NCBI GenBank assembly: GCA_050942955.1
Contig: JBMNOG010000006.1
Coordinates: 932 to 64,931, forward strand
DNA: 64,000 bases
Reading direction: 5' to 3'
DNA from: Patescibacteria group bacterium
Lineage (GTDB): Bacteria > Patescibacteriota > Microgenomatia > UBA1400 > UBA1449
Shown: one piece after another, positions 4,552 to 62,424 of the stretch
Layout: each line of letters opens with the position of its first letter
How positions within the stretch are numbered: the first letter of the stretch is position 1
The notes under the pieces: model-generated
What the model saw: the letters and a program-made list of their open reading frames with translations, nothing else
Told to the model about the DNA's origin: nothing
Databases searched by the model: none
Made by a program: the position numbers and the translations under genes

Positions 4552-4885
4552 AGTGTAAGCTAGTATAGAAAAGCAAAGCTATTATTTCAAGAGAAGAAAA
4601 GCTAAAAAGTACGAAGTTACAAGAGCGAGGTACCAAGTAGGAAGAACCAGGTGCAAGGTGCGAAGCGCTAATTCGAAGCTTTATAAAAGCGAAGGATGGA
4701 AATTTTGGAAGGATGTTCCTCATCTTTTTGAGTGAAAGGTACAGGCAGGCAGGCTAATAAGGGTGTCCTTTTTTTTCTCTTTCTTTGCGGAAAAGAGAAG
4801 AAAGTTTTAGGACACGCAGGAAAAATAGCATATTTACTTCAGGTAACCAAAGAAAGACGACAATTTTTTTATCAATCCAATTAAA

Positions 4886-7048: not shown

Positions 7049-8215
7049 TCACTCAAGCCGTTCTTTTAATATAAGGACTCTTTCAACTGAGTCTTCAAGG
7101 CGTTTCCTTAAATGATCTTCCTTGTCGAATGCTGCCTCTAATCTCTCGCAAACCGGCCTGTAGTTATTCAAATCGCTAACAATAAATAGATCTGCTCCGG
7201 CTGTAAAGCTCTGCAGCACAAACTCATCAAGCTTTTGCTGGCTGGTTACTGCCTTCATGGTAACGTCATCTACAACAACCACACCTGAAAATTGCAGTTC
7301 CCCTCTTAGAAGGTCTGCAATAAAGTACGGCGAAGCACTGGTAATAGCGGGATCAATGTGTGGATACATAAGGTGCGTAACCATAACAGCCCCTGCCCCA
7401 CTATCAATAACCTGTTTAAATGCCTTTAAATCCGTCGCTAGCTCTGTTTTATCCAGATTGATCTTGGGTAGTACCTGGTGAGGATCGGAAACTGTATACC
7501 CTAAACCTCCGGGAAAGTGCTTGGCAACAGGAATTATTCCTATCTTCTTATACCCTTCAACCATAGCGGTCGCCAGTTTAGCTGAGTTAGCGGTAAATGC
7601 CCGTCCTTGCCTTTCAATAAACGAGGTTTTAACAGTACTACCTGTCGTTTCAACAACTGGCGCAAAATTTACATTAATTCCCAAATCTTTTAGTTCTTTC
7701 CCTCTTTTTACAGCAACTTGTACAGCTTCCTTGTAAGTTGTAATCTCAGACTGAGCCGTAGTATCTATCCAAGGAATCCGGCTCACCCTCCCCCCTTCCT
7801 GGTCAACAGCTATAAATGGCTTAATGCCCGAGAGAGTTGCCTGTTTGGCAATGGCTGCTGTTAACTCTTTAAGTTGATCAGGGTTTTTTATATTTTTATT
7901 AAGAAGCATGAAACCGCTGATTTCACCATTTTGCAGTAATATTTTTTCCTCTTCTGCAAGGGTTGTGCTTTCAAGCGTAGTGATCAGCAACTGACCTATT
8001 TTTTGCCTGTATGATAGTTTTGACATTTTCATCTTAACTTCCTGAGCTTCTGGGGGTAAGTTTGGTACCAGAGAACTCCGGTAGGACGGCTCTTTAAGAA
8101 ACACGGCTCCAAAAGCACACCAGAGCGCTACTAGCACAACCAAACTAATGGTATTACCTATTAAGATTCTTTTACAATTGAGCCGGTGAAAAACTGAGCG
8201 GGATACTTGTCGCAT
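7049..8215 (-). CDS. nagZ: Beta-N-acetylhexosaminidase, glycoside hydrolase family 3 (NagZ-like).
   Basis: GH3 N-terminal domain with a KHFPGGLG (KHFPGhG) motif; N-terminal TM anchor. Confidence 0.75.
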   Translation of the reverse strand: MRQVSRSVFHRLNCKRILIGNTISLVVLVALWCAFGAVFLKEPSYRSSLVPNLPPEAQEVKMKMSKLSYRQKIGQLLITTLESTTLAEEEKILLQNGEISGFMLLNKNIKNPDQLKELTAAIAKQATLSGIKPFIAVDQEGGRVSRIPWIDTTAQSEITTYKEAVQVAVKRGKELKDLGINVNFAPVVETTGSTVKTSFIERQGRAFTANSAKLATAMVEGYKKIGIIPVAKHFPGGLGYTVSDPHQVLPKINLDKTELATDLKAFKQVIDSGAGAVMVTHLMYPHIDPAITSASPYFIADLLRGELQFSGVVVVDDVTMKAVTSQQKLDEFVLQSFTAGADLFIVSDLNNYRPVCERLEAAFDKEDHLRKRLEDSVERVLILKERLE

Positions 8216-8423
8216 AAGGCTGTAAATGATAGTATACTAAGTCTGTTATTGTGTGTACCAGGGTCTGGAAAATGCCTTGTAATCACTTTAACAACACAGA
8301 GGAGTTGTATATTTTAATCCCTTGAGTCACAAAGTGACGAAAGGGAGAGATCAATTATCCCTTTTGAGGGATAAAGCCTCTCAGTTAAGGACATATTCAA
8401 AGTTTCTGATACTTTAACAACAC

Positions 8424-8575: not shown

Positions 8576-10180
8576 CTATTCCTGAATTAAAGAGTCAAAC
8601 CCTCTATGTGTTTCGGATTCTAAAGTAGGGTTTATGTAAAGTACTAGGTCTTCAGCAAGGTAAGTAGATCTCTTAAGAAGCGGGTTTTTTGAAGAAGAAT
8701 GGAAACGATATTCCTGTTCTTTTATCATGGTGCCCTTGACCTCTTTCAAAAAAGTTAGCTGTCCCGACTCAATTTCGTCACCCATAGTGCTGTTAATTAG
8801 GAGGTAGTCAACCGTATTAGGGTCATTTTGCAACTTACCGTCCCGTATCTCCTGGTCATACTCAGTCTTTGAATACCACTCTACATTAGGAAACAAAACT
8901 TTGTTATTTTTATCTATCCGCAAATCCAGAAAAACAAAATTATCTGCCACAATAACAGCCTGTTTATCTTGAATACTTTGCAAGCTTTCCAGTGCCTGCA
9001 ACTGGTTAGCAGTAGCATTTTCAAGGTAAAGAAACTCACCCTCTTTGAGCCAAAACATCGTTAATACTGCTAAGGGTAAAAACCAGCTCAACGGATGTTT
9101 TTTTATAAAACCATTAACTCGGGCTTCAAAAGTGAGTAAGTGTATCAGAAAACAGATTTGCAAAACTAGAAGGGGTAAAAGTGGAATAATGTAAAAATCA
9201 AGAATTGTTCCTCCTCGAATAAGAAAAAAGGTAAAAAATACACTCATAAGTGCTAACCCAATAACCACTTTATTTTTGTGCTGAAAAAGAAGGTTAAGAA
9301 CTAATGCTCCAAAACCAGCGCCAATCAACCATGGATCTATCTGCAGCCAGAAATCAAGTTTTTGACATAGGTCACTGCCTTCTTTCCAAAATAACAATCC
9401 TGAACCTCGTTTAACCTGAAAAAACAAGGTTTCGACAAAACTCACATGTTCTCCTCCGGGCAAAAACTCGCCTTTAAGAAAAGCAAGTAAAGGAAAAAGA
9501 CTTAATAAAAACCCGGTAGTAACTAAAGCTAGAAGTGTCTGGTAACGTCTGTTAACCTTACTGTTCAGGACATGCACCATATAGAGAAAAGGCGGTACTA
9601 CAAACAAAAGCGATTCCTTCGAAAGAACTGCAGCAGCCAAAAAGACACTACCCAAAAACACGTTTTTACCTTTGCTTGGCTCTCTAAGAAAAACAAAAAG
9701 ACTGACAAGCAGCCAAAAAGAAGCTAGGTTATCTAAAAGTACTTGCCTATGAAATAAAACTGCCAGTGGTGAAAACGCAAAAACCACCACTCCAAACAAA
9801 GCAATAAAAACGGACTTCGTGACATTATGGATAAGTTTGAACAGAAAAACACTGGAAAGACTGCTCACAAGGATCATAAACAGCCTCCCGGAGAACAAGG
9901 AAAAGCCAAAAGCGAAAGGCCCTCCTGTAAGCTTTTGCCACAAACCTATCTGCAACCAACCCAAAGGAAAGTGGTCATACCAATATGTGTAGGGCCCCAT
10001 TTCCTTAAAGTGAGTCCACCACCAAGCCTGGGAAACATAAATACCCTCATCTCCTAAAAACTTAGGAAACCGCCAGAAGCCGACCAGTAAAGGTATGGCT
10101 GTTAAGAGAAATACTAGTACTAAGGGTAGTAAAGAGTTTGGGTTTGCAACAGCTGGTAATTTTACCTGTTTTTGCTTCAC
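8576..10180 (-). CDS. GT-C family glycosyltransferase (GT39/ArnT/PMT-like).
   Basis: 534-aa protein with about 12 TM helices, an N-terminal periplasmic-loop acidic motif region and a C-terminal soluble domain, typical of lipid-linked sugar transferases. Confidence 0.6.
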   Translation of the reverse strand: MKQKQVKLPAVANPNSLLPLVLVFLLTAIPLLVGFWRFPKFLGDEGIYVSQAWWWTHFKEMGPYTYWYDHFPLGWLQIGLWQKLTGGPFAFGFSLFSGRLFMILVSSLSSVFLFKLIHNVTKSVFIALFGVVVFAFSPLAVLFHRQVLLDNLASFWLLVSLFVFLREPSKGKNVFLGSVFLAAAVLSKESLLFVVPPFLYMVHVLNSKVNRRYQTLLALVTTGFLLSLFPLLAFLKGEFLPGGEHVSFVETLFFQVKRGSGLLFWKEGSDLCQKLDFWLQIDPWLIGAGFGALVLNLLFQHKNKVVIGLALMSVFFTFFLIRGGTILDFYIIPLLPLLVLQICFLIHLLTFEARVNGFIKKHPLSWFLPLAVLTMFWLKEGEFLYLENATANQLQALESLQSIQDKQAVIVADNFVFLDLRIDKNNKVLFPNVEWYSKTEYDQEIRDGKLQNDPNTVDYLLINSTMGDEIESGQLTFLKEVKGTMIKEQEYRFHSSSKNPLLKRSTYLAEDLVLYINPTLESETHRGFDSLIQE

Positions 10181-10231: not shown

Positions 10232-11590
10232 TTAGTGTGAAGGAGAATACAAGAGACGGTGGCTGTTTTGGTGGACTGTCTTTTCCCAGGTATATTTACC
10301 TAGAGTAAGACGCACAAGCGCCCTTAGAGATGAAATAAAGAGCATTAGTTGGTACGGGAAAAATGTCAAAACAGTCGTTATAAAAACACCTAAAGGAAAG
10401 CGCAGGTTGTAGTACTTGCGAAGATCATACAATCCCAAGGCGTACATACCCAACTGCATTACTAAAAAGTACGCAGGCAGATATGAAAGTAACGCCAAAC
10501 CAACCGGAACCTGCAAAAATCTAGTCATAAGGGGTAGAAGCACCATAGCTACAAAACTGACATGCCTAAAAAGGGGTTGGGTTAGAATGTACAAACTCAG
10601 GTACTGCTGCTTTAGACTCTTAAACTTCAGCCACTGGCCTTTGAAAAGAATTTGTAAGTACCCGAAATCCCAACGGGAACGCTGCTTAATGAAAGCCAGT
10701 TCATCAACTGGAGTCTCTTCCAGAGTAGACAAATTTTCTTCGTATATAACACCAGTCTTAAAGTTGTGGTTAGATAGTCTGACCCCGATATCAGCATCTT
10801 CTGTTAGACACCCCTCGTCCCACTTCCCTACTGTTAGCAATGCCTCTTTTTTGATAAACACAGAGTTACCACCAAGGAAAGTAGTTTTATTTTTTGCCAT
10901 CATAGGCAGAACTGACTTGTACCAGAAGTAATACTCCAAACAGTTAATAGCTGAAAACCAGGTAGAGCCTACGTTAATAAGCTGGACCCCGGCCTGAACA
11001 ATACTAAGCTCGGTATCAGCAGCAAAAGCTTCAGATACGTGGGTTAAGATATCAGGATGAGGCTCGTCTTCAGCATCAAAGACAGCCACAATCTCGTGTT
11101 TAGCAAAGTGAGCGCCGATGTTTAAGCTGTAGGATTTAGTATTAGCTTCTCCGTCAATAGTAATGAGCCTGAAGTTATCGCGGTTTATTTGCGCTAATGC
11201 TTCTTCAGTTTTTGCAAGTGTTGCAGCATCATCTGCCCTTACTACTACCAAGACTTCATACATAGTTTTAGGGTATGAGATCCGGGACATAGCCTTAAGC
11301 GTGTCGGCAATAACTTTTTCCTCATTTCTGGCAGGAACAATCAGAGAAAACGTATAACTACCTTTTCCTGGCAAAATGTGTTTTTTGGCTTTAAGGCCTA
11401 ATAGTCTGCCGCTTTCTAAAAAGGTATATAACATTGAGTAGGTCGATAATGCTCCCTGACCGGTAAGAAGCAGTGTCAAAGCTAAAAGAATTGTGGATAT
11501 CAAAGGCAACTGAAACCAGACGGCCACGTAAAGGAAAAGGCTTAACGCCCAAAGAGGAAAGAATAGTAGTGCTAGTTTTTGTATATTCAT
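10232..11590 (-). CDS. Processive family-2 glycosyltransferase (polysaccharide synthase, cellulose/chitin-synthase-like).
   Basis: TM helices flank a GT-A domain with DXD (VFDAEDEPHPD), a TED motif (CLTEDAD) and the QxxRW processivity motif (QRSRWDFG). Confidence 0.75.
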   Translation of the reverse strand: MNIQKLALLFFPLWALSLFLYVAVWFQLPLISTILLALTLLLTGQGALSTYSMLYTFLESGRLLGLKAKKHILPGKGSYTFSLIVPARNEEKVIADTLKAMSRISYPKTMYEVLVVVRADDAATLAKTEEALAQINRDNFRLITIDGEANTKSYSLNIGAHFAKHEIVAVFDAEDEPHPDILTHVSEAFAADTELSIVQAGVQLINVGSTWFSAINCLEYYFWYKSVLPMMAKNKTTFLGGNSVFIKKEALLTVGKWDEGCLTEDADIGVRLSNHNFKTGVIYEENLSTLEETPVDELAFIKQRSRWDFGYLQILFKGQWLKFKSLKQQYLSLYILTQPLFRHVSFVAMVLLPLMTRFLQVPVGLALLSYLPAYFLVMQLGMYALGLYDLRKYYNLRFPLGVFITTVLTFFPYQLMLFISSLRALVRLTLGKYTWEKTVHQNSHRLLYSPSH

Positions 11591-11865
11591 TACATTTTGG
11601 GCAGCTATGCAAAAGCTGCCCCTATGGTATTTTTTGCTTCCCTAAATCCTCAAATTTTAAGTTTAAGAACTTAGGAAAACGTGAGAAACCGAACCAAACC
11701 AAAGACATGAACAAATCAATACCCTAAGGTATCAATAGGTTCAAGCTATAGCTTGATCACGTTTGTTTTCCCTCATCTAAAAGATGAGAAGCAGGGCCCC
11801 GTTATTGGGGAGCGCCATTCGGCGGGGCCCTGCTGTTAGACCGGGTGTTTCGCAGGTGACTTACG

Positions 11866-13020
11866 TCACTTGCGAAAAAGATGGATCAATTCCACCCGGT
11901 TGACCTCACGCTCAGTCTCGAGAACGTTCTTGACGTTGAGCCACCAGGGCGCGAACGCGAACGAGTCACGAGCCTGCGACAAGGTCATGTAGTCCGAAAC
12001 TGTGACCGTAGTGCCAGCCGGCTCACCTCTCCAGGGATCATCCCCAGGGAGGTCGTTCTCGTAGAGGACAAGGTTGTCCCCCTCAAGCTTGATCCAGGAT
12101 AGCTTCCAGAAGAAGTTACCGGGGATCTTATAGATCCTCCAGTCGGCTCCCGTCCAGACAGCGACGTATTGCACGCCATCGTTGGCGAGCTCGAACCCGG
12201 ACGGAAGGCTGTACGTGGTCTCGAACTTGGGCGAACGATCGAGCAAGAGCGCATAGGGGAACTGAAGGTTCAGTCCCTTTTTGAGCTCGTCGAGTTCGAC
12301 CGCGATCACGTACTCGATAGTGGCTGGGTAGCCGCTATCTACTTCCTTCTTGGCCTCGTCGACCTGCCTGCCTCCGAGGAGGTAGGCGACTGCGACACTC
12401 TCGGTCGTTTCGGTCTCCTCACCCACAGATGCGGGCTTGGGGGTAGACTGCGCCAGGGGATTGGCTTCGAGTGCAGTGATTCTGCGATCGAGAGAGTTAA
12501 GTCCCTCGTTCACATCCTCACGCATCCCCTGGATCGCTACAAGCACCGGATCAGGCGTAGGCGTACTCCCGTTGGTCCTAAGACCATTGGTTACAGCCTC
12601 GACCGAACCAGCCATCTGCCCCCACGGGACAATCCCGATGAGGACACAGATCAGGATGGCACCGATCACGGATAGAGAGATGGATGAAACCACTCTCCAG
12701 AACCGAGAAGGATACCATCCCCAGGGCCGCGACACAAAGAACAGAGCGATCGCACCACCGATGGCCAAGATGACTGCTAGGATGGTTAGCCATCTTGGCC
12801 ATATCACGAGCGCGGCGAGCGCGGCGAGTCCCCAAGCCAACAAACCGGCAGGGGCCAGACAGATAGTCATGAGCAGCAACCGTTTCCAGTTGCTATGGCT
12901 ACCATTCCCCAACCACGGCCATGGGTGCACACCACTGGCAAGAGTCCGCACGGCAAGATTCTGCCATGCGAATGCGGTTAGACCGAACAGTAGTACCACG
13001 GTGAACAACACGAGTTCCAT
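11866..13020 (-). CDS. Hypothetical membrane protein (4 N-terminal TM helices plus a C-terminal extracytoplasmic domain), encoded in a GC-rich island.
   Basis: 384-aa ORF. Local GC is about 58-60% against about 40% in flanking DNA. The gene has its own upstream palindrome and a GC-rich downstream hairpin. Confidence 0.6.
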   Translation of the reverse strand: MELVLFTVVLLFGLTAFAWQNLAVRTLASGVHPWPWLGNGSHSNWKRLLLMTICLAPAGLLAWGLAALAALVIWPRWLTILAVILAIGGAIALFFVSRPWGWYPSRFWRVVSSISLSVIGAILICVLIGIVPWGQMAGSVEAVTNGLRTNGSTPTPDPVLVAIQGMREDVNEGLNSLDRRITALEANPLAQSTPKPASVGEETETTESVAVAYLLGGRQVDEAKKEVDSGYPATIEYVIAVELDELKKGLNLQFPYALLLDRSPKFETTYSLPSGFELANDGVQYVAVWTGADWRIYKIPGNFFWKLSWIKLEGDNLVLYENDLPGDDPWRGEPAGTTVTVSDYMTLSQARDSFAFAPWWLNVKNVLETEREVNRVELIHLFRK

Positions 13021-13227
13021 GATTTGCCTCCTAAGGCAACTATATGCTCATCCTCTCAGCTCCCCATGAGTGAATGGCAATCGAAAACGGAATGTTTTTT
13101 CTCACTTTTATATGTAGCTTGTTTAGTTGGATAAGCTAATGAGTAAAATAAATACACTTCCGTTTCCCGTTGCCACCCACACGCAGGAAGCATTAAAGGT
13201 TTGGAGGCTTTTTGGAAAACAATTTGT

Positions 13228-13248
13228 TGCATTGCAAATTGCAATGCA
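13228..13248. promoter_or_regulatory. Perfect 10-1-10 palindrome (candidate operator) upstream of the GC-island gene.
   Basis: TGCATTGCAAATTGCAATGCA, about 210 bp upstream of the ATG at 13020 in a 580-bp non-coding region. Confidence 0.4.
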
Positions 13249-13648
13249 CGGTTTCTCACTTGTTAAAGAGCCTCCTGGCTATTGCCAGGAACTCTTAACC
13301 CCGTATTTTTGCGAAAGCGAACACAGCGTATGTGTGAGCGCTTCGAAAAATATATGTGGGTTAAAGAGCGCAGAGTTCTTTATTTCAAGCGCGCGTTGCG
13401 CTTACAAAAAACGCTGCCCATTCTCCCAACGTTTGTCGGGAGAGGCCAAGGGAAAACCCAGCTGGGCTTGCTTTAGTATTCCCCTTGCCTCTTCCAACAA
13501 AAAAAAGGCGGCTGCTTTAGCAGGTGCCTTTACCTTTATTTCAAACGTATTTTTTATTCCTGTCCTACTAAAGCTGCGCGTACTATAGCACATGTTATAG
13601 GACTTGTCAAATTATAGGATAACTGAGAAAGATGTAAGCTATTATGCT

Positions 13649-15124
13649 CTATTTATAGAAGTAAATATCATCAAGATATATAGTCATTATAGGATTATTA
13701 CTATTATTACCCACTAACACCCCTTTTACTTTATGTATACTTTCCAAGCCAAAGTTAGCGAGCGGCACAGCAACTGTAGTCCATGTAGTTTCTGGATTTT
13801 TGTCAGACAGGTAGTCAGAAAGCTGCAATTCACTGGACATAGTGTCAATATCAGTCTTAAGGCGAATATTGAGCATATCTATAGCTTCTTTATTTACTCT
13901 TAAACAAATTCCTGCAAACTGAGTTACATCCGCAGCTTTGTCGGTCTGCAGAAAAACTGCACCCTTTGGTTTCATTTCAGCTTTTATAACCTTATTCTCT
14001 TGCCCGGCTATAAACTGAAGATCAATCTCACTTTCCCAACTGTAATCCAGGAAGCCGTTCTCCAAAAAATCGGAATAAATATATAGTTCTTGGTCACTAC
14101 TAGAAAAACTTTGACCAGCTCCTTTGGGAATTTTCTGTTTGGATAATAAGGCATTTTGTACAATCTTTCCGTACGAGCTAGGGATAAACTGTTTTTCATC
14201 AGCTAAAAGGCAGGGGCATCCCTGGGCAGAAAAGTTCCAGGCAGTCCAGCCAATTCCTTCTTCCTGGGCATAGGCAATGAGGTCAGTAACTGACTCTTCT
14301 GACATAGGTGGATAACCGCCAGCTCCAAATTCTCCTAAAAACACCGGGTACTCCTGGGCAATAAGACCAAACAAGCCTTCAAACTCTCCTGATTTATTGT
14401 AAGGGTTTGACCGGTAGACAATGTTTTTGTATGGAAGAGGGTCTTCCAACCAGGGATTAATGAACCTTCCCCATCCAAGGCCGCTGACAAAAATAAGCGA
14501 ACGGGGGTTTTCTGCCCTCACTACCTCAATAAGCTGAATGTAGGCTTCTCTTAGCTGTTGCATAGTAACTCCCCGCGGCTCTGCCAGTAAGTCATAGAGG
14601 ATTAGGGGGTCATCTTTGTAACGCCTGGCAATCGCCGCCCACATAGCAACTGTCCCTTGGTCCGGCATAGGCTGGTTATCGTGAATCCAAGGGTGGAGAA
14701 TCACATAAACACCTTGCTTCCGGACAGGTTCGATAATTTCCCTTTCCATTTTGTCAAAAAAAGCTTCTGGATCTTCTTCAAATTCATCCTGAAAAACTCG
14801 GGTTCTGATAACATTAGCCTTCCACTGGGTAATAGCATAGGTAACCGCTTTACTGTTCCAATTATCCGTTCCCCAGTTAATGCTACTAACATTTACCCCT
14901 CTAAGCAACACCATATCTCCTGTTTCGTTAGTGATAAAAGGTCCACTGGTAGAGAGCCACTGCACTGGCGGTGGCCCCAGCTTAAGTGCTTTTTCTACAG
15001 GATTGGTAATCTTTTGGTTTACTATTCTTTGCCACACGTGAGAGCTACCGATTTTATAGATAAAAGGAGATACAAGAATTATTAGAGAAATGACAATTAA
15101 TAGATTAGACCGAAAACGGCGCAT
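13649..15124 (-). CDS. GH5 family endoglucanase/cellulase-like hydrolase, membrane anchored, with an extra C-terminal beta-rich domain.
   Basis: GH5 nucleophile motif FLGEFGAGG, an acid/base-region LLAEPRG (unusual AEP where NEP is expected), an N-terminal TM segment and a C-terminal domain of about 150 aa. Confidence 0.65.
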   Translation of the reverse strand: MRRFRSNLLIVISLIILVSPFIYKIGSSHVWQRIVNQKITNPVEKALKLGPPPVQWLSTSGPFITNETGDMVLLRGVNVSSINWGTDNWNSKAVTYAITQWKANVIRTRVFQDEFEEDPEAFFDKMEREIIEPVRKQGVYVILHPWIHDNQPMPDQGTVAMWAAIARRYKDDPLILYDLLAEPRGVTMQQLREAYIQLIEVVRAENPRSLIFVSGLGWGRFINPWLEDPLPYKNIVYRSNPYNKSGEFEGLFGLIAQEYPVFLGEFGAGGYPPMSEESVTDLIAYAQEEGIGWTAWNFSAQGCPCLLADEKQFIPSSYGKIVQNALLSKQKIPKGAGQSFSSSDQELYIYSDFLENGFLDYSWESEIDLQFIAGQENKVIKAEMKPKGAVFLQTDKAADVTQFAGICLRVNKEAIDMLNIRLKTDIDTMSSELQLSDYLSDKNPETTWTTVAVPLANFGLESIHKVKGVLVGNNSNNPIMTIYLDDIYFYK

Positions 15125-15135
15125 ACGTACTCCAA

Positions 15136-16464
15136 CTAATGTTTTCGCCTGAGAAATAAGGCTTTGACTCCATTATAAATTGATTCTCCACTCTTTACTA
15201 ACCCGTAAGCTTCAACTATTCCAATAAGAGGAATGATCGGCAAAAAGTAGCGGTCAAACGCCACTGTTAGGTATAAGGCTAAAAACAGAACAGTCCCCGC
15301 AAACCACCAGAGAAAGTAAAGGCTTTTCTTCTCTCTTTTAAGGACTTGGATTAGCAAAAAGCTACTGCCTAAAATAAACAGTAGCACATCAATACCATCT
15401 GGTAGCCAGGGTAAAAACCTCTGGTTATGGTTAGCAGGAAGCAGAGTTTCCTCGGCTATTCCCAAAATACGGTCAAAGGGTGATGTATAGGCTAGGCTAG
15501 GTACACTTTGCTGCATATTTAAAGCAACCTGGCTACGCCAGGAAAGCATTTTGAGCGTGTTTTGGATTGGATTTTCCCAGACAAAAGGATTTAAAGCTGT
15601 AAAAACAATAAAAGCCGTAAGGTACATCACCAAAATAGGGACAAAAGCCTCCTTTACTATTTTGGAATTCCTTTTTCTTTGAAACCACGGGATAGCAAGC
15701 ATCCAGATAGAGCCTAGTATTGCTGTCATAGCAGCGTTAAGTTTAATACTGGTAGCACAACCAATCCATATGCCTAAAAATGTACTAAAACTGATAGTAA
15801 TCCAGAAATTTTTTCTAGGCTTATTTGCAAAAAAGGCAAAAAGGAGGAAGTTTATCATCATAAAAAAGATAAGCATACTGTCAGCCATAGCTTGCCTTCC
15901 CCCACTCTGAAGCAACCGGTGCTGGGCAAGCAAAAGAAAGCTGGCAAACCCTGTTACATACCCTCCTACATAGTTACCCATAAAAAAAATAGCTACTAAC
16001 AGAGCAAGGGTAAAAACTACCCCAAAGTATCGATTAATAACAATCACCTTATAAGCGTCTTGGTATTTCTCAGGAATAAATTGGTATTGAGGAGTGTGAG
16101 CCTGGTATTTTACCCACCATTGACTGGGAGAGTACTCTGAAAATAAAGAGTATGAGGCTAAATTCTCCTGAAAACCGGTTTCTGCAAAGACTTGTTGAGG
16201 ACTTTTCTGATAATAAAGAGACGTCCAGGCACCGTAAAGATATTCTCCTAGTTTTGGCTGATCATATGAGTGATAGCTTTTCCAAGCAGTATGAGAGAAA
16301 TCTTTCTCGAGGAAATACTTCTGAAAGAAGATGCCCCCTCTTTCAATCCAGGCATACTCGTCTTCATGAAGCGATTGATTAGGAAGATCTTGATAATACA
16401 CAAAAGCAACAACCGTAAAACAGAGAATAAACAGCAGGGTTTTAGCAATAGTAGGCCAACGCAT
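15136..16464 (-). CDS. Polytopic membrane protein, putative GT-C-like glycosyltransferase.
   Basis: 442-aa protein with 10 or more predicted TM helices and aromatic-rich loops, located in the glycan cluster. Confidence 0.45.
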   Translation of the reverse strand: MRWPTIAKTLLFILCFTVVAFVYYQDLPNQSLHEDEYAWIERGGIFFQKYFLEKDFSHTAWKSYHSYDQPKLGEYLYGAWTSLYYQKSPQQVFAETGFQENLASYSLFSEYSPSQWWVKYQAHTPQYQFIPEKYQDAYKVIVINRYFGVVFTLALLVAIFFMGNYVGGYVTGFASFLLLAQHRLLQSGGRQAMADSMLIFFMMINFLLFAFFANKPRKNFWITISFSTFLGIWIGCATSIKLNAAMTAILGSIWMLAIPWFQRKRNSKIVKEAFVPILVMYLTAFIVFTALNPFVWENPIQNTLKMLSWRSQVALNMQQSVPSLAYTSPFDRILGIAEETLLPANHNQRFLPWLPDGIDVLLFILGSSFLLIQVLKREKKSLYFLWWFAGTVLFLALYLTVAFDRYFLPIIPLIGIVEAYGLVKSGESIYNGVKALFLRRKH

Positions 16465-20888: not shown

Positions 20889-21650
20889 TCATGGGGTATA
20901 ACGGGTATAGTCAACCGCTCCACAACGCCAGCCTGAAAGAGGGTTGACCACCTCAAGCAGCCACCCCTGTTCAATTGCCTGACCGACCCGGAAGCAGAAC
21001 TCCTGCTCTCCCCACTCCGAGGTTGTTACCAAGGCAAAACCGTCGGTAACGTTAAGGACAACCGGAGTGCCATCACTCCGCCAGGCTCTGTAGTGGCCTT
21101 CGATGCCGTTGACAACAACTCCGCCAGCGATGATAACGCTTCCAGTGGGAGCTTCAATCGTCCACACCTGATGTCCACCAACTCCAGTTGGTAAGTACAG
21201 TGAGGGGTGAGTAATATCCGGTTGGGGGTTAAGTCCAGTCGCAACAGTCCCGTTGATCACAATGAGAGGTGGTTGACCTACCGTACCCCTTCGTCCCGGC
21301 ACAACAGCCATTTCGGATGCGGCCGCTGGTACAACACCTTGTGGTTCCAGAACAGCTACCCCTTCTCTGATGGTTGCAGCCATGATTCTCTGGAGCTCTT
21401 CTTGAGTGAGAACACCCTCTTGGATCTCCTGCCTAATTTCCTGCCTAAACTGCTCGAACTCCCCCTGAGTGACCTGTCCTTCACGGACTGCTACAAGAAC
21501 CCGCTCCTCAAATTCTTCAAGGTCTGCGGCTGTAACTACGTCCACGTCACCCAGATCAGGCTCGATGTCCCCGCCAGTGTAGGCGTCACAGGCCATTAAG
21601 GCCACGATAAACACCACTACCAGAACAGATGTTGCTATTACTCGTCTCAT
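20889..21650 (-). CDS. Putative lipoprotein of unknown function (GC-rich island gene 1).
   Basis: Signal peptide ending in the lipobox-like LMAC, an E/Q-rich helical segment and a Gly/Val-rich beta domain. Local GC is about 52-55%. Confidence 0.5.
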   Translation of the reverse strand: MRRVIATSVLVVVFIVALMACDAYTGGDIEPDLGDVDVVTAADLEEFEERVLVAVREGQVTQGEFEQFRQEIRQEIQEGVLTQEELQRIMAATIREGVAVLEPQGVVPAAASEMAVVPGRRGTVGQPPLIVINGTVATGLNPQPDITHPSLYLPTGVGGHQVWTIEAPTGSVIIAGGVVVNGIEGHYRAWRSDGTPVVLNVTDGFALVTTSEWGEQEFCFRVGQAIEQGWLLEVVNPLSGWRCGAVDYTRYTP

Positions 21651-21666
21651 CTGAAACCTCCTTCTC

Positions 21667-23163
21667 TTAGGGGTTTGTCCGCCTGACTCTCCGCCAGTTG
21701 TTTCCGACCAATCCCATAGCCACTACCAGAGTAATAAATGCCAGGATGTAGAGTATGGGTATCAGCCAACCCATAAAAACGCTGCGATAAGCCCCACCTT
21801 GGTCAAGAATAAACCTAGCCCAGGTTAGAGTACCACCCAGTGCTAGCAGAAAGAGCAAGCCTCCTACCCCACCTAGAATGAGAGCTGTAGTGTTAGTCTC
21901 CCTAAAGGTAGAAATCGCTACAACTTGGGATGTAGGAGGTGCAGGAACAACCGGTACTGGCCGTTCGCTCTGGACCGCCGCTCGGTGTACCTCCAAAAGA
22001 AGATCGTGGTACTGTTGAGAGTCATAGGTCTCAACAGGTTCACCTTCGAGTATATCAGCCCTCTGTCTGAACTCGGCTCGGCGGTCTTCGGGTACTAGGT
22101 CAATCTGTGTCCTTATTACCCGAAGATAGTGTTCTTTCTGATCCTGAAGAACACTGCGTCTGGCATCACGGCGGTGTTCTTCGATCTGGCTCTCGGCTAT
22201 CCTATCTTCCAGATCATTTACCATCTCTTGGATCAACTTAGCCGCATCCTCTACCGGATACATATCCCAGGTTTTCCATTCAAGGTCATCAACCTGCTTC
22301 CGGTACTTCCCAGCTTTGTCAGGGGAAAGATTTTTGTAGACAGTGAGGACAATCTCCTGAAGAGTATCTCGGGTTTCCTGCTTGTAGGTCGATTCCCTCT
22401 TGTCTGCCCTCTGTTGAATAGTCTGGGCAGTATCCTCGTTTATATCTTCGAGAAGTTGGAGTGTCGCTTGGACATCAAAGTCGATGGCAGATTGAGAACG
22501 CTGTTCCTCAATTCTGTGCCGGAACTCTTCACGGTGATCTGGATGGACTTTGTCCAGCTTGTTCTCTGCCTTGGAAAGAAGCCCGTCTTTCACCCTGGCC
22601 TTACTCAGCACCTCCTCTTCTGTGAGAACCACCACTTTGTCAGCCACTTCCTCTCTCCTCTTCTCTGCTTCACTGGGTTCAGGGATTTCGTCACTTACTT
22701 TTGGGTGAGAAGGTGTAATTGGTGGAGCTTCTAGAATCGGTTCTCTAAGCCCAACCTCCGCCTTTATCCTATCTAGTTCTTCTTCAAGTTTGGTGTCTCT
22801 CCGGTTCAACTCCTCACGCACACTAGTCAGGATCCTCTGCTCAGAGCTTTTCAGTAGTTCTGCCAATAATCCCTCTGTTTCCTGAGCTGCTTCTTCAGCT
22901 ATTTCAGGGATAGATTCCACACTCTCATCAACTTCCGGTTCCGTGGTAACCACTTGTGGTGAGGGTGAAACGGAACTTCTTTGAGCCTCCCATTCCCCTG
23001 TTTTTTGAAGAAGTTCATCTTCAAAGGCTTGACCGCTTAGACCAGTCCGGTTCTTGATCCTCTGCTCAAGAACTTCGATACCCCCTGTCCTCCATTCCTC
23101 TCTCAATTCTCTCGCCCAGTAGCGAAGCACGTAGTAGCGTTCCCGACCCGTTAGTCGCTCCAT
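21667..23163 (-). CDS. Coiled-coil protein with two C-terminal TM helices, unknown function (GC-rich island gene 2).
   Basis: 498-aa protein, highly charged with E/R/K-rich heptad-like segments. The C-terminal ALILGGVGGLLFLLALGG ... LIPILYILAFITLVVAMGLV forms a TM hairpin. Confidence 0.5.
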   Translation of the reverse strand: MERLTGRERYYVLRYWARELREEWRTGGIEVLEQRIKNRTGLSGQAFEDELLQKTGEWEAQRSSVSPSPQVVTTEPEVDESVESIPEIAEEAAQETEGLLAELLKSSEQRILTSVREELNRRDTKLEEELDRIKAEVGLREPILEAPPITPSHPKVSDEIPEPSEAEKRREEVADKVVVLTEEEVLSKARVKDGLLSKAENKLDKVHPDHREEFRHRIEEQRSQSAIDFDVQATLQLLEDINEDTAQTIQQRADKRESTYKQETRDTLQEIVLTVYKNLSPDKAGKYRKQVDDLEWKTWDMYPVEDAAKLIQEMVNDLEDRIAESQIEEHRRDARRSVLQDQKEHYLRVIRTQIDLVPEDRRAEFRQRADILEGEPVETYDSQQYHDLLLEVHRAAVQSERPVPVVPAPPTSQVVAISTFRETNTTALILGGVGGLLFLLALGGTLTWARFILDQGGAYRSVFMGWLIPILYILAFITLVVAMGLVGNNWRRVRRTNP

Positions 23164-23396
23164 CTTCTCCCTCCAGTTACAAAGTTTAGAGACAACTCAT
23201 CTACAACCAGACTTACTCGCCTACCCATTTAAAGAGTCAGAGAGAAAGCTGGTTTACAGCTTACTACCTTGTTAAAGTGCTTCTTGCAAAAAGTTAGGTA
23301 AACGCATATGTTCGCCGCTTTGTGCAAGACTCGTTCTGCCAAGTAGGCAGAGAAGAAACCCGATATCTCTTCCCTGCCTGCTTTAGAAATGAGGGC

Positions 23397-39194: not shown

Positions 39195-41351
39195 TTACTG
39201 GTGCTCTGAAGAGACTACAGGCAGTTCAAACCAAAATGTGCTCCCTTTTCCTTTTTCTGAAACTACTCCGAGCTTACCATCAAATTTTTCAATTAAAAGC
39301 TTTGTAATGTATAGTCCTAAACCTGTTCCTAAAACCTTGCCAGCGCTTGATTCTGCTCTGAAAAATTTCTGGAAAAGTTTGTTCTGTTCATCCTGAGTCA
39401 TGCCGTACCCTGTATCCTTAACTTCAAAGCGAACAGTCTGTTCATCAGGTTGAGAAAGGGTAACAGCAATGCTTCCCTTATCAGTGTACTTAATAGCATT
39501 ACTAATGAAATTTGCCACCACTTCATAAATTCGATCTTGATCAACAAATACTTTGTCCTCAATATTCTTTGAAATATTTAAACTGAAATCTAATTCTTTA
39601 TTTCTTGCCTCAATTTTGAATTCTTCAAAAGCAGTTTTTACAATTGTGGCTAAATTGCACTTCCCCATCTGATAAACTAGTCTCCCTTCTTCAATTCTGG
39701 AGACATTGAGCATGTTATTCACCAAACGAATCTCTCTTTCCGCCCCCTCCAAAGCTCCTTCTAAATACTCCCTTACTTCCTTGGAGACTTTACCGGCATC
39801 ACCTTCATTAATCATTGAAAGGTAACCCTTAACCGCAGTTAGTGGAGCTCTTAACTCGTGAGCTGCAACTGAGATAAACTCATCCTTCCTTTTGTCAAGC
39901 TCTTTGAGCTTGCTATTAGCTTCTCGTAGTTGCTCTGTTGCCTCCTTGATCTTAATTTTCAATCTTTCGCTAAATTGCTGGATTTCGGTATACTGCAAAG
40001 CGTTTTGAATAGCTACAGCCAACTGGGGGCCAAGTATTTCCAGGGTTTTAATGTCTTTGCCTGTGTAAATACTTCCCGTCTTCTTATTCCCCAGTGCCAT
40101 TAGCCCCACAATCTCACCCTTGGACTTTAGCTGCACAAAACAACCAAAATCTCCTTTACGCATCACTTTCTTCAGACCTCCTTCTGGAATGTCATCAAAA
40201 ACAATTAAACTGCTTTTGTGGGCAATCAAATCCCGGTATTGTTTTAGAGAAATATTGTGTTCTTTTTCTCCGTTACCAACCTCTGCACAAAGATCAACTT
40301 TACGTTTTGTTACGACATAAAGTCTGCCAAAGTCTACATGAAACGTTCTACTAAGCTGCTGTAACACTCTTTTTGATAATTGCTTTAGTTCTAGTGTTGA
40401 ACCGAGAATAACTGAGATTCTTGAAAGCAGCTCTTGAGGATCATAGTTTTCCTGGAAAAATATCCTGTCTGTACTTTTCTCTAAAAATCTCCTTAAAGGT
40501 TGGAATGTATACGCAACAATCAGGGTCAGTAACACTGAGATCACCAACTGATTTCCATTCAAGGTACTCGGAAGAAGTAACTGCCCTACCCCATAAAGAG
40601 CTACAGTGTAAAAAGTGATAATAATAAGAGAGAGCAAGATGTATGACACCGTCCATGCCACTACCAAGCGGATGTCCATCAGGTGATGAGCTACGATAGC
40701 GTACACTGTGGCAATAACCATGAAAAAGGTAAAGTTAGGACCAAGTGCTACAAAGGTGTAGTTCTTAAACAGAAGAGGTATTGCCAAATTGAATATCAGC
40801 CCAAAGATAATACTGGTTACAGTACCCAGCAGGATGTACTTAATCTGCTGCTTAGAAACACCGGAAACCGCAAAATATTTCTTAACTAAAGTAATTGCCG
40901 CCCACCAAAAAAACGCAATCAGATACGCTGCGTATACATATATTCCTACCCCAGTAACAAGCGGCCGGCTCTCTCCAACAAATTCTATTCTTTCTAAAAC
41001 AAAACCAGGAATTGCAACCAGTGTAGTCAAAATAACAGTGGAGGCTAAAATAAATAGCTTAAGCCATTTCTTAATTTTCCCACTTGGGAAAACGTGTGTG
41101 AAATAGAGTTGGCCCGAAGCAATAGGAATTATACTGGCATATGATAAGATTGCCCAAAAATAAATCCATGTATATGTGTTTGAAAGTCTAAAAGCAAAAT
41201 TAGTAAATGCCCATAGGGCAATTCCAAGCAGAACTACAAAGAACGACCTGTTTATTTTGCTTTGGGGGTTATTAAGGAGAACAATTAAACCAAGTACAAA
41301 GTTAATTAACGTTGTAACAAGAAGCAAAGTTATTTGCCAGTCTACACCCAT
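39195..41351 (-). CDS. Sensor histidine kinase with an N-terminal 7TM receptor module, a GAF domain, HisKA and HATPase_c.
   Basis: Seven N-terminal TM helices, a central GAF-like region, an H-box VAAHELRAPLTAV and a G2 box GTGLGLYITKLL. Confidence 0.85.
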   Translation of the reverse strand: MGVDWQITLLLVTTLINFVLGLIVLLNNPQSKINRSFFVVLLGIALWAFTNFAFRLSNTYTWIYFWAILSYASIIPIASGQLYFTHVFPSGKIKKWLKLFILASTVILTTLVAIPGFVLERIEFVGESRPLVTGVGIYVYAAYLIAFFWWAAITLVKKYFAVSGVSKQQIKYILLGTVTSIIFGLIFNLAIPLLFKNYTFVALGPNFTFFMVIATVYAIVAHHLMDIRLVVAWTVSYILLSLIIITFYTVALYGVGQLLLPSTLNGNQLVISVLLTLIVAYTFQPLRRFLEKSTDRIFFQENYDPQELLSRISVILGSTLELKQLSKRVLQQLSRTFHVDFGRLYVVTKRKVDLCAEVGNGEKEHNISLKQYRDLIAHKSSLIVFDDIPEGGLKKVMRKGDFGCFVQLKSKGEIVGLMALGNKKTGSIYTGKDIKTLEILGPQLAVAIQNALQYTEIQQFSERLKIKIKEATEQLREANSKLKELDKRKDEFISVAAHELRAPLTAVKGYLSMINEGDAGKVSKEVREYLEGALEGAEREIRLVNNMLNVSRIEEGRLVYQMGKCNLATIVKTAFEEFKIEARNKELDFSLNISKNIEDKVFVDQDRIYEVVANFISNAIKYTDKGSIAVTLSQPDEQTVRFEVKDTGYGMTQDEQNKLFQKFFRAESSAGKVLGTGLGLYITKLLIEKFDGKLGVVSEKGKGSTFWFELPVVSSEHQ

Positions 41352-41398
41352 ATATCACTAATTGTAGCAGCTATATTTCTGTTTAAGTAGGTATAGTC

Positions 41399-42193
41399 TT
41401 ACTTTTCGGAAGATTTTAAAGGAGGTTGAGGACATCCCTCCAGAAACCATGCCAGTAGTTTTGGGTTTTTATCTGTCATATTAGTTTTTGCTTCTTCGCT
41501 ACTCATAGTTGAAGCAACGTTAATTTTATCTTTAGCATGGAACTTGTGCTCTACTCCAATTTGCTTAAAAGGGAAACCATATCTTTGAAGAAGCTTCAGT
41601 AAACCTCTGGTCGTTACGATGTACCACTCATCTCTTCCTGTAGCAATAGAGAAATGGTAAGCTGCTTTGTAAAGACACATAGCAGCTTTGTTTCCCTCAG
41701 AAGATTGCCTGAGGTCTTTTTCTACTGCAATCCGAGTTACTTCAAAAGAGTTGTTAGGGTCGTCGTGCCACTCACACTCTGCTTCATTGGGAACCATTTC
41801 TTTAAACGGGCCATCTAACATAAATCCTTTGCCATTAGCAGTGGGGGTTATGAGTCTTACGTACCCAGCCAGCTCCCCTAGCCTATCTTTGTGAAATAAA
41901 CCAATATGAATAGCTGTTTCATCATAATCGTCACTTTTCATCTCTTGTTCTGGGGTTACCCAACCAAGCTCATCAGCAAATACAGCAGTCCGTAGTTGGT
42001 GAATTTTCCTTTTCATTTCTGAATTTGAGTAATCAAGCTGGGAAACCTCAAATGGTCCATCAGTAAATTCAATCCTCTCAGGCAAAGCCTGTCTATTTTC
42101 AAGGATTAATCGAAGATCGCTACTAACATCACTTTCTACAGTAGCCTCTTCTGTTTCAGGAAGAATAACATCCGTTTCCATACGCAGAGTCAT
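41399..42193 (-). CDS. LuxI-family (autoinducer synthase-like GNAT-fold N-acyltransferase) protein with N- and C-terminal extensions.
   Basis: Matches the LuxI-family signature blocks: LRTAVFADELGWVT (RxxxFxxxLGW), SDDYDE (acidic D-x-x-D), YVRLITPTANGKGFML (RLLPT block), FEVTRIAV (E-x-x-R) and the C-terminal YIVTTRGLLKLLQRYGF block. Confidence 0.6.
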   Translation of the reverse strand: MTLRMETDVILPETEEATVESDVSSDLRLILENRQALPERIEFTDGPFEVSQLDYSNSEMKRKIHQLRTAVFADELGWVTPEQEMKSDDYDETAIHIGLFHKDRLGELAGYVRLITPTANGKGFMLDGPFKEMVPNEAECEWHDDPNNSFEVTRIAVEKDLRQSSEGNKAAMCLYKAAYHFSIATGRDEWYIVTTRGLLKLLQRYGFPFKQIGVEHKFHAKDKINVASTMSSEEAKTNMTDKNPKLLAWFLEGCPQPPLKSSEK

Positions 42194-58337: not shown

Positions 58338-59294
58338 CTATGATTGGACTAATTTTCTAAAGCGCCAGATCTCCAAGAGACGCAAGCCTGAGTACTGCTC
58401 TACCAGAGCTATGACAGTTACTAAGCTTATAACAAATAGTTCTGGATTAACCAAAGCAAACTTTTGTAGAATTTCCCAGTTCATAAGATAGAAACACATA
58501 ACAGCAACTATTAAAGTCTCTACTGTAATTATTAGTGCTTGGGAAAAACTGCGAGTGATCTGTAAGTCAAGAAAGTCTTCAACTAGTAAAATAAGAATTA
58601 AAATCGGGAAAATACCAATAGTAATTAATGCTTCAGCCCTTAACGCTGGAGATATTAGTAAAATACCAAGTACGGTTAATGATACAAACAGAATGAATAA
58701 AGCCATTCTCGGCAAGTACTGAATACGGGCTCGTTTAAGAAGCATTCTAAGCAGTGTAGCCACAAAAAGAATCGCAATAAAAAGAAAAATACCAACCGTT
58801 AACCCTGTAGCCAAAAACGCTACTGCCAAAAGTGCCGGAGTAAAGATACCAAAACTCTTTAATCCAACCACATGCCGAGCAATAACAACAACTGTAGCCA
58901 CTAATGGAAAAAGTAGTATTAGTACTATAGTATTAGCAGGCACTCCCTGTGCTATGGCTGATCTGATAGCATGGCGCCCAACATTAAGCGGATTCAGTTC
59001 CCCTACTGGATTTTCTTCAAGATATTTCTCTAATTTTCCTTTTACTTCAGGTTTTGGCTCAGTAAGGTCTGGTTCTTTTTCAACCACTTTTTTGACAATT
59101 GAAGAAGCAGAGGCCTCTTTTTTCTCTCCAGACAGTGATGCCTCTGCCGAGACACTCGCATCGAGAGAAATCTCAGGAGTAGGACTTGGTGAAGTTCGCG
59201 TCTGGGCTACAACAGGATCTGCAAAAAGGGAGAAACCTAGAAAGAGACAAGATAGAAAAAAAATACTATTCGTTATAAAAGCTAGCTTATTCAT
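58338..59294 (-). CDS. 7TM integral membrane protein (7TM module of the kind usually partnered with RimK-like ligases), with a signal peptide and an S/E/P-rich N-terminal linker.
   Basis: Signal peptide MNKLAFITNSIFFLSCLFLGFSLFADPVVAQ, a low-complexity linker of about 80 aa and 7 predicted TM helices. Confidence 0.6.
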   Translation of the reverse strand: MNKLAFITNSIFFLSCLFLGFSLFADPVVAQTRTSPSPTPEISLDASVSAEASLSGEKKEASASSIVKKVVEKEPDLTEPKPEVKGKLEKYLEENPVGELNPLNVGRHAIRSAIAQGVPANTIVLILLFPLVATVVVIARHVVGLKSFGIFTPALLAVAFLATGLTVGIFLFIAILFVATLLRMLLKRARIQYLPRMALFILFVSLTVLGILLISPALRAEALITIGIFPILILILLVEDFLDLQITRSFSQALIITVETLIVAVMCFYLMNWEILQKFALVNPELFVISLVTVIALVEQYSGLRLLEIWRFRKLVQS

Positions 59295-62200: not shown

Positions 62201-62424
62201 ATCTTTTTATATCATTGAATTGTTCCAGCTACTGATCACCTATCAAGATAATCAATTTATCTAGTATAAATTATAGGATTTAATTGACACTAATTTTTCA
62301 GGTCAAAGCTGCTAGTTTTATACATGCTCCCCTTTTTCCTATTTGACAGCGTGTGAAAATCTTTTTTATTATAGTAATAGGAAGAAATAAAAGTTATGCA
62401 AACTTATGCACTAACAGGCTAAAG

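Follow-up and report, generated by a model that had tools for sequence, protein, structure and literature searches.

Does a sharply GC-rich gene in an AT-rich genome have to be a recent arrival? The question is raised by one gene in a 64-kb stretch of contig JBMNOG010000006.1 (assembly GCA_050942955.1) from a Patescibacteria group bacterium, referred to below as the window. The gene, here called X after its 384-aa product, lies between genes for a GH5 glycoside hydrolase and a GT2 glycosyltransferase, and the initial annotation took it for a horizontally acquired cassette with regulatory signals of its own. Comparison with related loci gives another answer: positions 11771-13618 (minus strand) are one resident, conserved, self-contained and GC-rich predicted transcription unit of a Microgenomates-type genome of the Candidate Phyla Radiation (CPR; Patescibacteria). 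The earlier proposal holds insofar as the unit is compositionally distinct and self-contained, equipped with a promoter, leader and 3' hairpin of its own, but largely not as regards an acquired insertion, since the position between GH5 and GT2, hereafter the slot, is GC-rich in 19 of 19 syntenic loci.

A GC-rich gene at a conserved position

In 300-nt windows, GC content is 0.54-0.60 across approximately 11750-13100 versus 0.35-0.47 on the flanks, and no other non-rRNA kilobase of the 64 kb exceeds 0.53. The coding sequence (CDS) of X has 57.5% GC (0.58, 0.45 and 0.69 at first, second and third codon positions; GC1, GC2 and GC3) against a window background of 0.42, and the GC3 of the remaining 38 open reading frames (ORFs; at least 150 aa) of the window is 0.29-0.50. 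The abrupt-edged island described in the initial annotation is thereby borne out, and the codon-usage comparison suggested there sets X apart from these 38 ORFs. The shift falls mainly on third positions, with G- and C-ending codons both increased (codon shares in X versus the comparison set: GAG 0.74 versus 0.38, AAG 0.83 versus 0.34 and ATC 0.90 versus 0.22, with TTA absent). Five further ORFs of at least 60 aa overlap the island in other frames, as expected from the earlier remark on spurious ORFs, and no GC skew or G-run signature was found. Expression-linked codon bias was considered and rejected: ribosomal protein S1 (GC3 0.39) and the pilins (0.31-0.36), whose genes are usually highly expressed, are ordinary, so the shift is not the expression-linked codon preference of the organism; moreover, A-ending Lys, Glu and Gln codons are avoided in X. 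Elsewhere in the window, an AT-rich stretch at 59000-62500 (27-30% GC versus 42% background) represents an anomaly in the opposite direction.

An exhaustive HMMER search with X retrieved 10 relatives among 1.84 billion representative proteins: three frameshifted pieces of the same gene, the protein P0003, and six small proteins corresponding to the C-terminal domain (C-domain). P0003 shares 40% identity with the N-terminal four-helix module of X, starting from residue 5; for the C-domain, identity to P0005 and P0007-P0011 amounts to 26-31%, and a word-indexed search with an alignment of the X domain added no further members. All homologues reside exclusively on AT-rich, CPR-type contigs, and the search of other phyla proposed in the initial annotation points to no GC-rich source. 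P0003 forms a single-gene island of its own (62.6% GC, GC3 0.75; neighbours 0.17-0.34) on L002, a 34% GC contig that is syntenic with the window at 24-27 kb. In L006, L008 and L009, a C-domain homologue of X's own family directly follows the GH5 orthologue (slot GC3 0.60-0.67 versus 0.37-0.50 in the neighbours), and the gene order past the slot in L006 (GT2, PMT-like, GH3) is identical to that of the window.

With GT2 as the anchor for locus comparisons, 160 loci were retrieved from reference genomes and metagenomes, and those with a GH5 gene no more than 4 kb upstream of GT2 were regarded as syntenic. All 19 syntenic loci carry a GC island in the slot, with peak GC 0.12-0.31 above the mean of the two flanking genes; the strongest (L011) reaches 0.64 in a 33% GC genome, and no empty slot was found among them. 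These loci come from different genomes and assemblies (JGI, ENA, NCBI and Logan; a few are duplicate records of one locus) and, where named, belong to Beckwith-, Shapirobacteria or Patescibacteria. Loci with more distant GT2 homologues and no adjoining GH5 have no island. At each syntenic locus, an ORF of 190-400 aa on the same strand fills the slot and encodes an N-terminal membrane anchor; its GC3 is 0.43-0.77 (mostly 0.54-0.77; 0.60-0.76 in the closer relatives of X, family A below) versus 0.24-0.57 in the neighbours. The GC profile averaged over 14 loci rises from 0.36-0.45 before the start codon to 0.50-0.59 after it and drops 60-120 nt past the stop codon, which delimits the island to the CDS plus a 3' element; the adjoining leader itself is not GC-rich. 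Two further GC-rich ORFs were observed near slots: one for a 157-aa charged, coiled-coil-like protein (L011:5489-5962, GC3 0.77) immediately precedes the slot gene of L011, and one for a 227-aa membrane protein (L092:192-875, GC3 0.66) lies ahead of the L092 GH5 gene.

BLAST groups the slot proteins into three families: A (window, L004-L010), B (L015-L019, L053, L067 and others) and C (L011, L012 and L092). In all three, a membrane anchor is joined through a linker rich in Pro/Thr or Val/Glu to a small Trp-rich domain; this plan and several short motifs are conserved among the slot proteins, none of which matches a Pfam family. A beta-gamma-crystallin-type domain (motifs ND..Q and VLYE(H/N)D..G.W) was considered and rejected, as neither Pfam, PDB profiles nor Foldseek supports it. 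Family B has 18 members among 5.8 billion proteins, of which the three with a source name are all from Patescibacteria or Shapirobacteria, and the slot families are so far confined to CPR-type or unnamed metagenomic sequences. Slot genes evolve under constraint and faster than their surroundings: family-A orthologues are 26-29% identical versus 43-62% for GH5 and GT2 (the upstream GH5 orthologues of all syntenic loci being 39-51% identical), and the pairwise ratio of nonsynonymous to synonymous substitution rates (dN/dS) is 0.14-0.34 versus 0.03-0.15 for GT2 (0.16 in one deeply diverged pair). On these ratios, the slot ORFs are true protein-coding genes that purifying selection constrains, though less tightly than the genes beside them.

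Promoter, leader and 3' end of the unit

The intergenic region upstream of X measures 628 bp (13021-13648), rather than the 580 bp first given, and contains the palindrome assigned to it in the initial annotation. Directly after the GH5 stop codon lies a predicted promoter (Table 1) that matches the consensus at 11 of 12 positions. The pattern CC(C/T)ATAA-TTGAC(A/T)-17-TAnnnT is present at the same place in L004-L009, L011-L019 and L053, as well as upstream of P0003 in L002, and the promoter type is thus seen in slot families A, B and C. The predicted transcript opens with a motif termed M, GCTTTAACAGG, and its leader folds with a minimum free energy (MFE) of -212.3 kcal/mol, compared with -148.7 +/- 6.1 kcal/mol for dinucleotide shuffles (z = -10.5). 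The leader is homologous to those of the other family-A loci. Among Rfam models, only rRNA and tRNA reach the gathering score in the whole window, and a search of 11400-13800 with E values up to 5 gave merely chance-level miRNA models and no match to the leader.

M has two complements in the leader. The first, M'1, pairs with M in the MFE folds of five of six family-A leaders, and a U-run follows in four of six; the resulting hairpin P1 looks like an intrinsic terminator or attenuator, and could double as the terminator of GH5. The second, M'2, is a perfect complement of 9-12 nt in the loop of hairpin H in all six leaders. It occurs in three sequence variants, and the partners change in step (GCTTTAGTAGG with TACTAAAGC in the window; CTTGAGCAA with TTGCTCAAG in L005). 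In the corresponding alignment (A4), 93% of cells pair versus 40-53% when the partners are slid, and 10 two-sided pair changes were counted versus 3.9 +/- 1.3 in shuffles (0 of 500 reach this value). The position of M'2 downstream of the terminator excludes a classical co-transcriptional antiterminator role. In L006 (4460-5160), the leader is split between hairpin H and the conserved box described below by approximately 650 nt with a 99-aa ORF; further downstream, this contig also carries a YafQ/PhdYeFM toxin-antitoxin pair. In the family-B loci L018, L019 and L053, the sequence GGGGCCGAAAGAA by the Shine-Dalgarno site is the exact complement of UUCUUUCGGCCC just past the stop codon (e.g., L019:3900-3986 and 4575-4600) and also has a partner within the leader, which suggests a putative 5'-3' or alternative pairing like that of M and its complements in family A.

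Nearer the start codon, the leaders of slot families A, B and C carry a conserved box, whose core CTTTAACAAG is common to all of them. The box is also present upstream of P0003 in L002 and of a 498-aa ORF in the window (23268-23278). Of its 23 occurrences in AT-rich loci, six precede DNA whose GC exceeds the background by more than 0.10, versus 1.7% of random positions; two borderline cases (+0.07 and +0.09) would raise the count to eight. That promoter type and box are common to the slot families indicates continuity in place. The box was also considered as a sigma-70 -35 element and rejected, as no consistent -10 element was seen by eye 17 nt downstream across loci. The 498-aa ORF belongs to a second box-preceded unit (20889-23278, minus strand; ACTTTAACAAG at 23268-23278) with a 253-aa ORF and 50-54% GC, which stands where L002 has P0003, flanked by a DUF11/sortase pair and a GT2 gene. 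Its raised GC lies mainly in GC1, and it has no structure excess (z -1.8 and -1.0). Paralogy of X or P0003 with these GC-elevated genes (21667-23163 and 20889-21650) was examined and none was found. Furthermore, the 20-mer ACTTTAACAACAC(A/G)GAGGAGT occurs twice on the plus strand of the window, 126 nt apart (8285-8295 and 8411-8421); its first half is box-like (in L005, CTTTAACAACACGAG), and the second copy extends into the 5' end of the tRNA-Ser(GCT) gene at 8424.

Directly 3' of the box lies the perfect 10-1-10 palindrome of the initial annotation, which is confirmed at 13228-13248 and has no match in shuffles of the window. Its proposed use as a regulon marker is rejected, as are related half-site patterns: it occurs as a single copy in the window and is absent from the equivalent place in all related loci except L001, which is from the same organism. 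It may be a lineage-specific operator or a predicted RNA hairpin. In L004, L008 and L009, the leader contains instead, approximately 40-70 nt past the box, a conserved CTGGAGAG(C/T)(T/G)CC-N-CAACTA(G/A)(T/G)GG, which is absent from the window, where the palindrome occupies that position.

The GC-rich stem-loop noted past the stop codon of X is borne out as a clamp with 12 of 12 pairs (AGCAGGGCCCCG/CGGGGCCCTGCT), a 21-nt loop and a distance of 31 nt from the stop; together with the smaller hairpin that follows it folds with z = -3.6. GC-rich 3' hairpins (z -3.4 to -8.2) also follow the slot genes of L006, L008 and L013 as well as P0003, and those of family B are weaker. The clamp is followed by TTCTCATCTTTT, a poor U-tract, and a terminator consensus scan finds only a 5-bp sub-stem. 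Because of the poor U-tract, it may be a stabilising stem-loop rather than a clean terminator.

Table 1. Features of the X unit and of the adjacent genes (window coordinates)
Feature	Position	Strand	Description
Predicted promoter	13582-13618	-	CCTATAA; -35 TTGACA (13610-13605); 17-nt spacer; TG-extended -10 TATAGT (13587-13582)
Structured 5' leader RNA (predicted)	13021-13578	-	Approximately 558 nt, from promoter to start codon
Hairpin P1 (predicted)	13499-13577	-	M GCTTTAGTAGG (13574-13564) and M'1 CCTGCTAAAGC (13524-13514), then T8 (13506-13499)
Hairpin H (predicted)	13439-13495	-	Loop 13478-13470, TACTAAAGC (M'2), second complement of M
Conserved box	13251-13271	-	GCTCTTTAACAAGTGAGAAAC; consensus (G)CACTTTAACAAGnCGAGA
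Palindrome	13228-13248	-	Perfect 10-1-10, TGCATTGCAA-A-TTGCAATGCA
Shine-Dalgarno	13027-13032	-	AGGAGG, 6 nt ahead of the ATG at 13020; sequence reading
CDS of protein X	11866-13020	-	384-aa ORF
Domains of X			Four transmembrane helices, aa 1-127; Pro/Thr/Glu-rich disordered linker, about 128-208; family-A extracytoplasmic domain, about 209-384 (AlphaFold2 model)
3' stem-loops	11771-11834	-	12-bp GC clamp (11834-11790) and hairpin CTCATCT/AGATGAG (11789-11771)
GH5 glycoside hydrolase	13649-15124	-	Membrane-anchored; upstream flank, conserved left slot border; Pfam PF00150, 6.6e-26
GT2 glycosyltransferase	10232-11590	-	Multi-transmembrane, synthase type; downstream flank, conserved right slot border; Pfam PF13641, 4e-35
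PMT-like GT-C	15136-16464	-	Pfam scan
PMT_2-like	8576-10180	-	Pfam scan
GH3	7049-8215	-	Pfam scan

What maintains the composition of the slot

Folding of the slot CDSs was compared with that of synonymous-codon shuffles preserving the protein, codon usage and GC3. For X, the mean over 120-nt windows gives z = -7.1 and the full CDS folds at -518 versus -447 +/- 10 kcal/mol (z = -6.9), with the excess distributed along the whole CDS in many local hairpins. The other slot genes have z values of -6.9, -6.7, -5.0, -3.6, -3.3, -3.0, -2.8, -1.9, -1.4 and -0.8, compared with +1.3 to -3.7 for 16 controls (neighbours, S1, Rho, pilin, and GT2 genes of genomes whose native GC is 49-61%; Mann-Whitney p = 0.002).

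Mutation in bacteria is described as AT-biased (PMC4450053), and such a bias should have erased the high GC3 over the deep divergence of the flanks; the high GC3 of the slot therefore appears to be actively maintained. The maintaining force has about an even chance of being selection on the transcript itself, which alone covers the CDS-bounded GC shift, the excess pairing, the hyper-structured leader and the 3' stem-loops. Such selection would yield a heavily base-paired, long-lived or attenuation-controlled mRNA, whose leader would offer a promoter-proximal terminator-like hairpin with the competing complements M, M'1 and M'2. A broader proposal is doubtful enough to be put forward as tentative: that this CPR lineage keeps 'armoured' envelope-protein units, in which the whole transcript is selected to be GC-rich and base-paired and which have in common the promoter type, the box and an attenuator-type leader (M/M'1/M'2 plus H). 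On that view, selection would set nucleotide composition gene by gene in an otherwise AT-rich genome, and the leader would represent a new class of cis-regulatory RNA.

Several observations weigh against selection on the transcript. The z values of the slot genes are uneven (-0.8 to -7.1), and some ordinary genes reach about -3 to -3.7. The excess on the antisense strand is almost as strong as that on the sense strand; this near-symmetry implies that it consists mostly of Watson-Crick inverted repeats, which may have arisen at the DNA level and do not require a function in the RNA. For the family-B CDS, RNAalifold gives an unfavourable covariation term (+4.9), and the covariation of the family-A leader is based on six sequences. 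L014, which has a close relative of GT2, shows no clear island in the 1.27 kb upstream, where GH5 was not detected. Finally, between L019 and L053 the slot has a synonymous distance (dS) of 0.42 versus at least 1.6 in the flanks, which fits lateral exchange or biased conversion at least as well as synonymous constraint.

This last pair brings in the main rival, GC-biased gene conversion, which is plausible but less likely. According to this explanation, the slot is a recombination hot spot in which an exchanged, diversifying surface gene forms mismatch-rich heteroduplexes that are repaired towards G/C, and the conserved flanks, with few mismatches, stay AT-rich. GC3 is indeed raised more than GC1 and GC2, and G- and C-ending codons rise regardless of translational optimality, a GC3-centred and optimality-independent enrichment that PMC4450053 describes as the pattern of recombining bacterial genes. 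The faster evolution of the slot protein than of its neighbours is also as expected, and the presence of the N-terminal module of X in P0003, at a different locus in L002, shows modules being shuffled. In L019 and L053, the low dS coincides with a block of 82-97% identity that runs from the 3' part of the leader through the CDS and the 3' untranslated region (UTR), which suggests from the sequences that the slot segment can be exchanged between related lineages. However, in the short-divergence pairs L018/L099 and L015/L094 the dS of the slot is not below that of the flanks, so that exchange of this type looks episodic, and the leader inside the high-identity block is not GC-rich. The size of the effect is a further difficulty: the GC3 difference between recombining and non-recombining genes described by Lassalle and colleagues in 2015 is reportedly only a few points, far below the 0.15-0.5 found here. 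Moreover, gene conversion predicts no pairing beyond that of synonymous shuffles and leaves the structured leader and the 3' hairpins unexplained.

The pairing alone could be a mutational by-product, an improbable explanation in which template-switching at quasi-palindromes perfects inverted repeats in a weakly constrained, fast-evolving gene and the hairpins are a footprint of mutation. The near-symmetry of the two strands, the many local hairpins all along the CDS and a CDS structure that is not clearly conserved within family B agree with it. Nevertheless, the energy gain is larger for the sense strand in three of four genes tested, the dN/dS of 0.14-0.34 means substantial constraint, and the high GC, its limits at the CDS plus 3' hairpin and its persistence in relatives are left unexplained.

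Slightly less probable still is the reading of the initial annotation, a cassette from a GC-rich donor, arriving once or repeatedly at an integration hot spot and keeping the donor composition. The GC1, GC2 and GC3 of X do resemble those of a native gene from a genome of about 58% GC, three unrelated-looking families occupy one slot, and L011 and L092 have extra GC-rich ORFs beside it. No homologue was found in any GC-rich genome context, however, nor any phage or plasmid relative of X, and the promoter type and box are common to the slot families. Marks of mobility were likewise lacking: no integrase, transposase or reverse transcriptase is encoded among the window ORFs of at least 150 aa, the only direct repeats flanking the island are short and chance-sized, and the closest tRNA is 3.3 kb off. 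In addition, P0011 combines a GC3 of 0.65 with ordinary GC1 (0.47) and GC2 (0.37), and a raised GC3 alone is not the signature of a donor genome. The island is present in every syntenic relative, and GC3, which is expected to ameliorate fastest, is high even where the flanks are 43-62% identical.

A GC-rich, highly structured tract in an AT-rich genome is a textbook indication of a large non-coding RNA, and the z values of the leader (-10.5), the CDS (about -7) and the 3' end (-3.6) would suit an island that is mainly a large structured non-coding or dual-function RNA with an incidental or secondary ORF. This is very unlikely: by a rough estimate from base frequencies, a 384-codon open frame would arise by chance at about 1e-6 at 58% GC, and the ORF has a consensus Shine-Dalgarno site, protein-level homologues with conserved motifs and, in the AlphaFold2 (AF2) model, transmembrane helices at the expected place of a membrane anchor; furthermore, dN/dS is below 1 in related slot families and no Rfam model matches. 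Despite the abrupt composition change at both ends, an assembly chimera containing a GC-rich fragment of another organism has a negligible chance of being correct, as an independent, indel-rich ENA contig (L001) is collinear with window positions 15069-11801 at 94% identity, through GH5, the upstream region, the AT-to-GC junction and the entire CDS to the hairpin, which shows that the upstream junction is not chimeric. Moreover, about 19 loci, drawn from JGI, ENA, NCBI and Logan assemblies, have this gene arrangement around a GC-rich slot.

Protein X, its glycan cluster and comparison with known systems

The only database entry for X is a 334-aa hypothetical protein from a 'Patescibacteria group bacterium' metagenome-assembled genome, which starts at Met51. 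The 384-aa start, which adds the first transmembrane helix (window 12871-13020), is predicted to be more likely than this NCBI start because of the AGGAGG 6 nt upstream and of the homology of P0003 from residue 5. The AlphaFold model (pLDDT 62.8) places four helices at the N-terminus, followed by a disordered linker and an alpha/beta domain at the C-terminus, and fits the four transmembrane helices plus extracytoplasmic domain of the initial annotation. As also stated there, the protein belongs to no recognisable family: Pfam, NCBIfam and PHROGs gave no match, a profile search of the PDB yielded just chance matches to antibody domains, and Foldseek with the AF2 model found nothing in the PDB below E = 0.05. 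Searches of the rest of the window with blastn and tblastn revealed no silent cassettes, repeats or partial paralogues of X. A role as target of a diversity-generating retroelement was rejected, as ORFs of at least 150 aa contain no reverse transcriptase domain and the X region is unrepeated in the window.

The GT2, GH5, PMT-like and GH3 neighbours (Table 1) agree with the glycan-biosynthesis cluster recognised earlier; GT2 has weak similarity to PgaC and CelA models. Elsewhere in the window there are type IV pilus genes and genes for a sortase, RadA, Rho and ribosomal protein S1, as well as an rRNA operon. A gene for a LuxI-type autoinducer synthase (PF00765, 41399-42193) adjoining one for a 7TM-GAF histidine kinase (39195-41351; together 39195-42193, minus strand) is unexpected in a CPR genome. 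Judging from this context, the product of X is probably a membrane-anchored extracytoplasmic partner of the GT2/GH5/GT-C glycan machinery at the cell surface, possibly involved, for example, in glycan binding or host contact. The arrangement resembles bacterial cellulose and exopolysaccharide synthase operons with BcsA (GT2), BcsB and BcsZ (endoglucanase), in that a synthase-type GT2 and an endoglucanase-type hydrolase flank a membrane-anchored extracytoplasmic protein; here, however, the hydrolase is GH5 rather than GH8 and GT-C (PMT-like) enzymes are also present. X as a BcsB-like partner was rejected, since it has no Pfam, NCBIfam or PDB similarity in sequence or fold and the likeness is one of operon context only.

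The unit shares individual traits with several known systems. Like genomic islands recognised by atypical composition, it has a sharp one-gene discontinuity, atypical codons and no recognisable family; unlike them, it occupies a slot conserved in all syntenic relatives, lacks mobility genes, tRNA or direct-repeat borders and a donor, shares leader elements with its relatives, and has a GC3 that is not ameliorating. The enrichment described for bacterial GC-biased gene conversion (PMC4450053) is likewise GC3-centred, independent of optimality and found in genes with signs of exchange, but the effect in the slot is many times the size reportedly seen there, is bounded by the CDS and is accompanied by excess pairing and a structured leader. 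Leaders controlled by attenuation, and riboswitches, have a promoter-proximal hairpin with a U-run as well; here M has a second, covarying complement in a downstream loop, which lies after the terminator, and the leader has no Rfam match.

The P1/RepMP genes of Mycoplasma pneumoniae and the vlsE locus of Borrelia are reportedly GC-enriched loci for variable surface proteins in AT-rich, host-dependent bacteria. Like them, X is a fast-evolving gene for a surface-exposed protein whose GC lies well above that of its small, AT-rich, host-dependent genome, and it shows hints of recombinational exchange; it differs in having no silent cassettes or copies in the window, no GC skew or G-runs, and variation that is seen between lineages. 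The mRNAs of slpA (S-layer) and ompA, which encode abundant envelope proteins, are long-lived and have long, structured 5' UTRs. The X unit resembles them in exaggerated form: it shares the consensus promoter, the extended structured leader, the strong Shine-Dalgarno site, the 3' stem-loops and a predicted envelope product, and differs in its much longer leader, the terminator-like hairpin with competing complements, and a CDS that is GC-shifted and hairpin-rich throughout. The ingredients (compositional islands, biased gene conversion, structured stable mRNAs and attenuator leaders) are known; new are their combination, the leader motif and the box, and no earlier description of GC-rich slot genes in CPR was found in the literature.

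Atypical composition is routinely read as evidence of horizontal gene transfer, and such calls would be wrong for this resident, conserved slot gene. The locus is a small, well-bounded test case under either force: if selection on the transcript is the cause, gene-specific composition would be an adaptive trait in organisms with very few ribosomes, and if biased gene conversion is, the slot would be an unusually strong bacterial example. The analysis also adds a covarying leader RNA that is absent from Rfam and a box marking a set of envelope-protein genes in uncultivated bacteria. The slot families are candidate fast-evolving surface proteins beside a glycan synthase, and may bear on the contact between these epibionts and their hosts.

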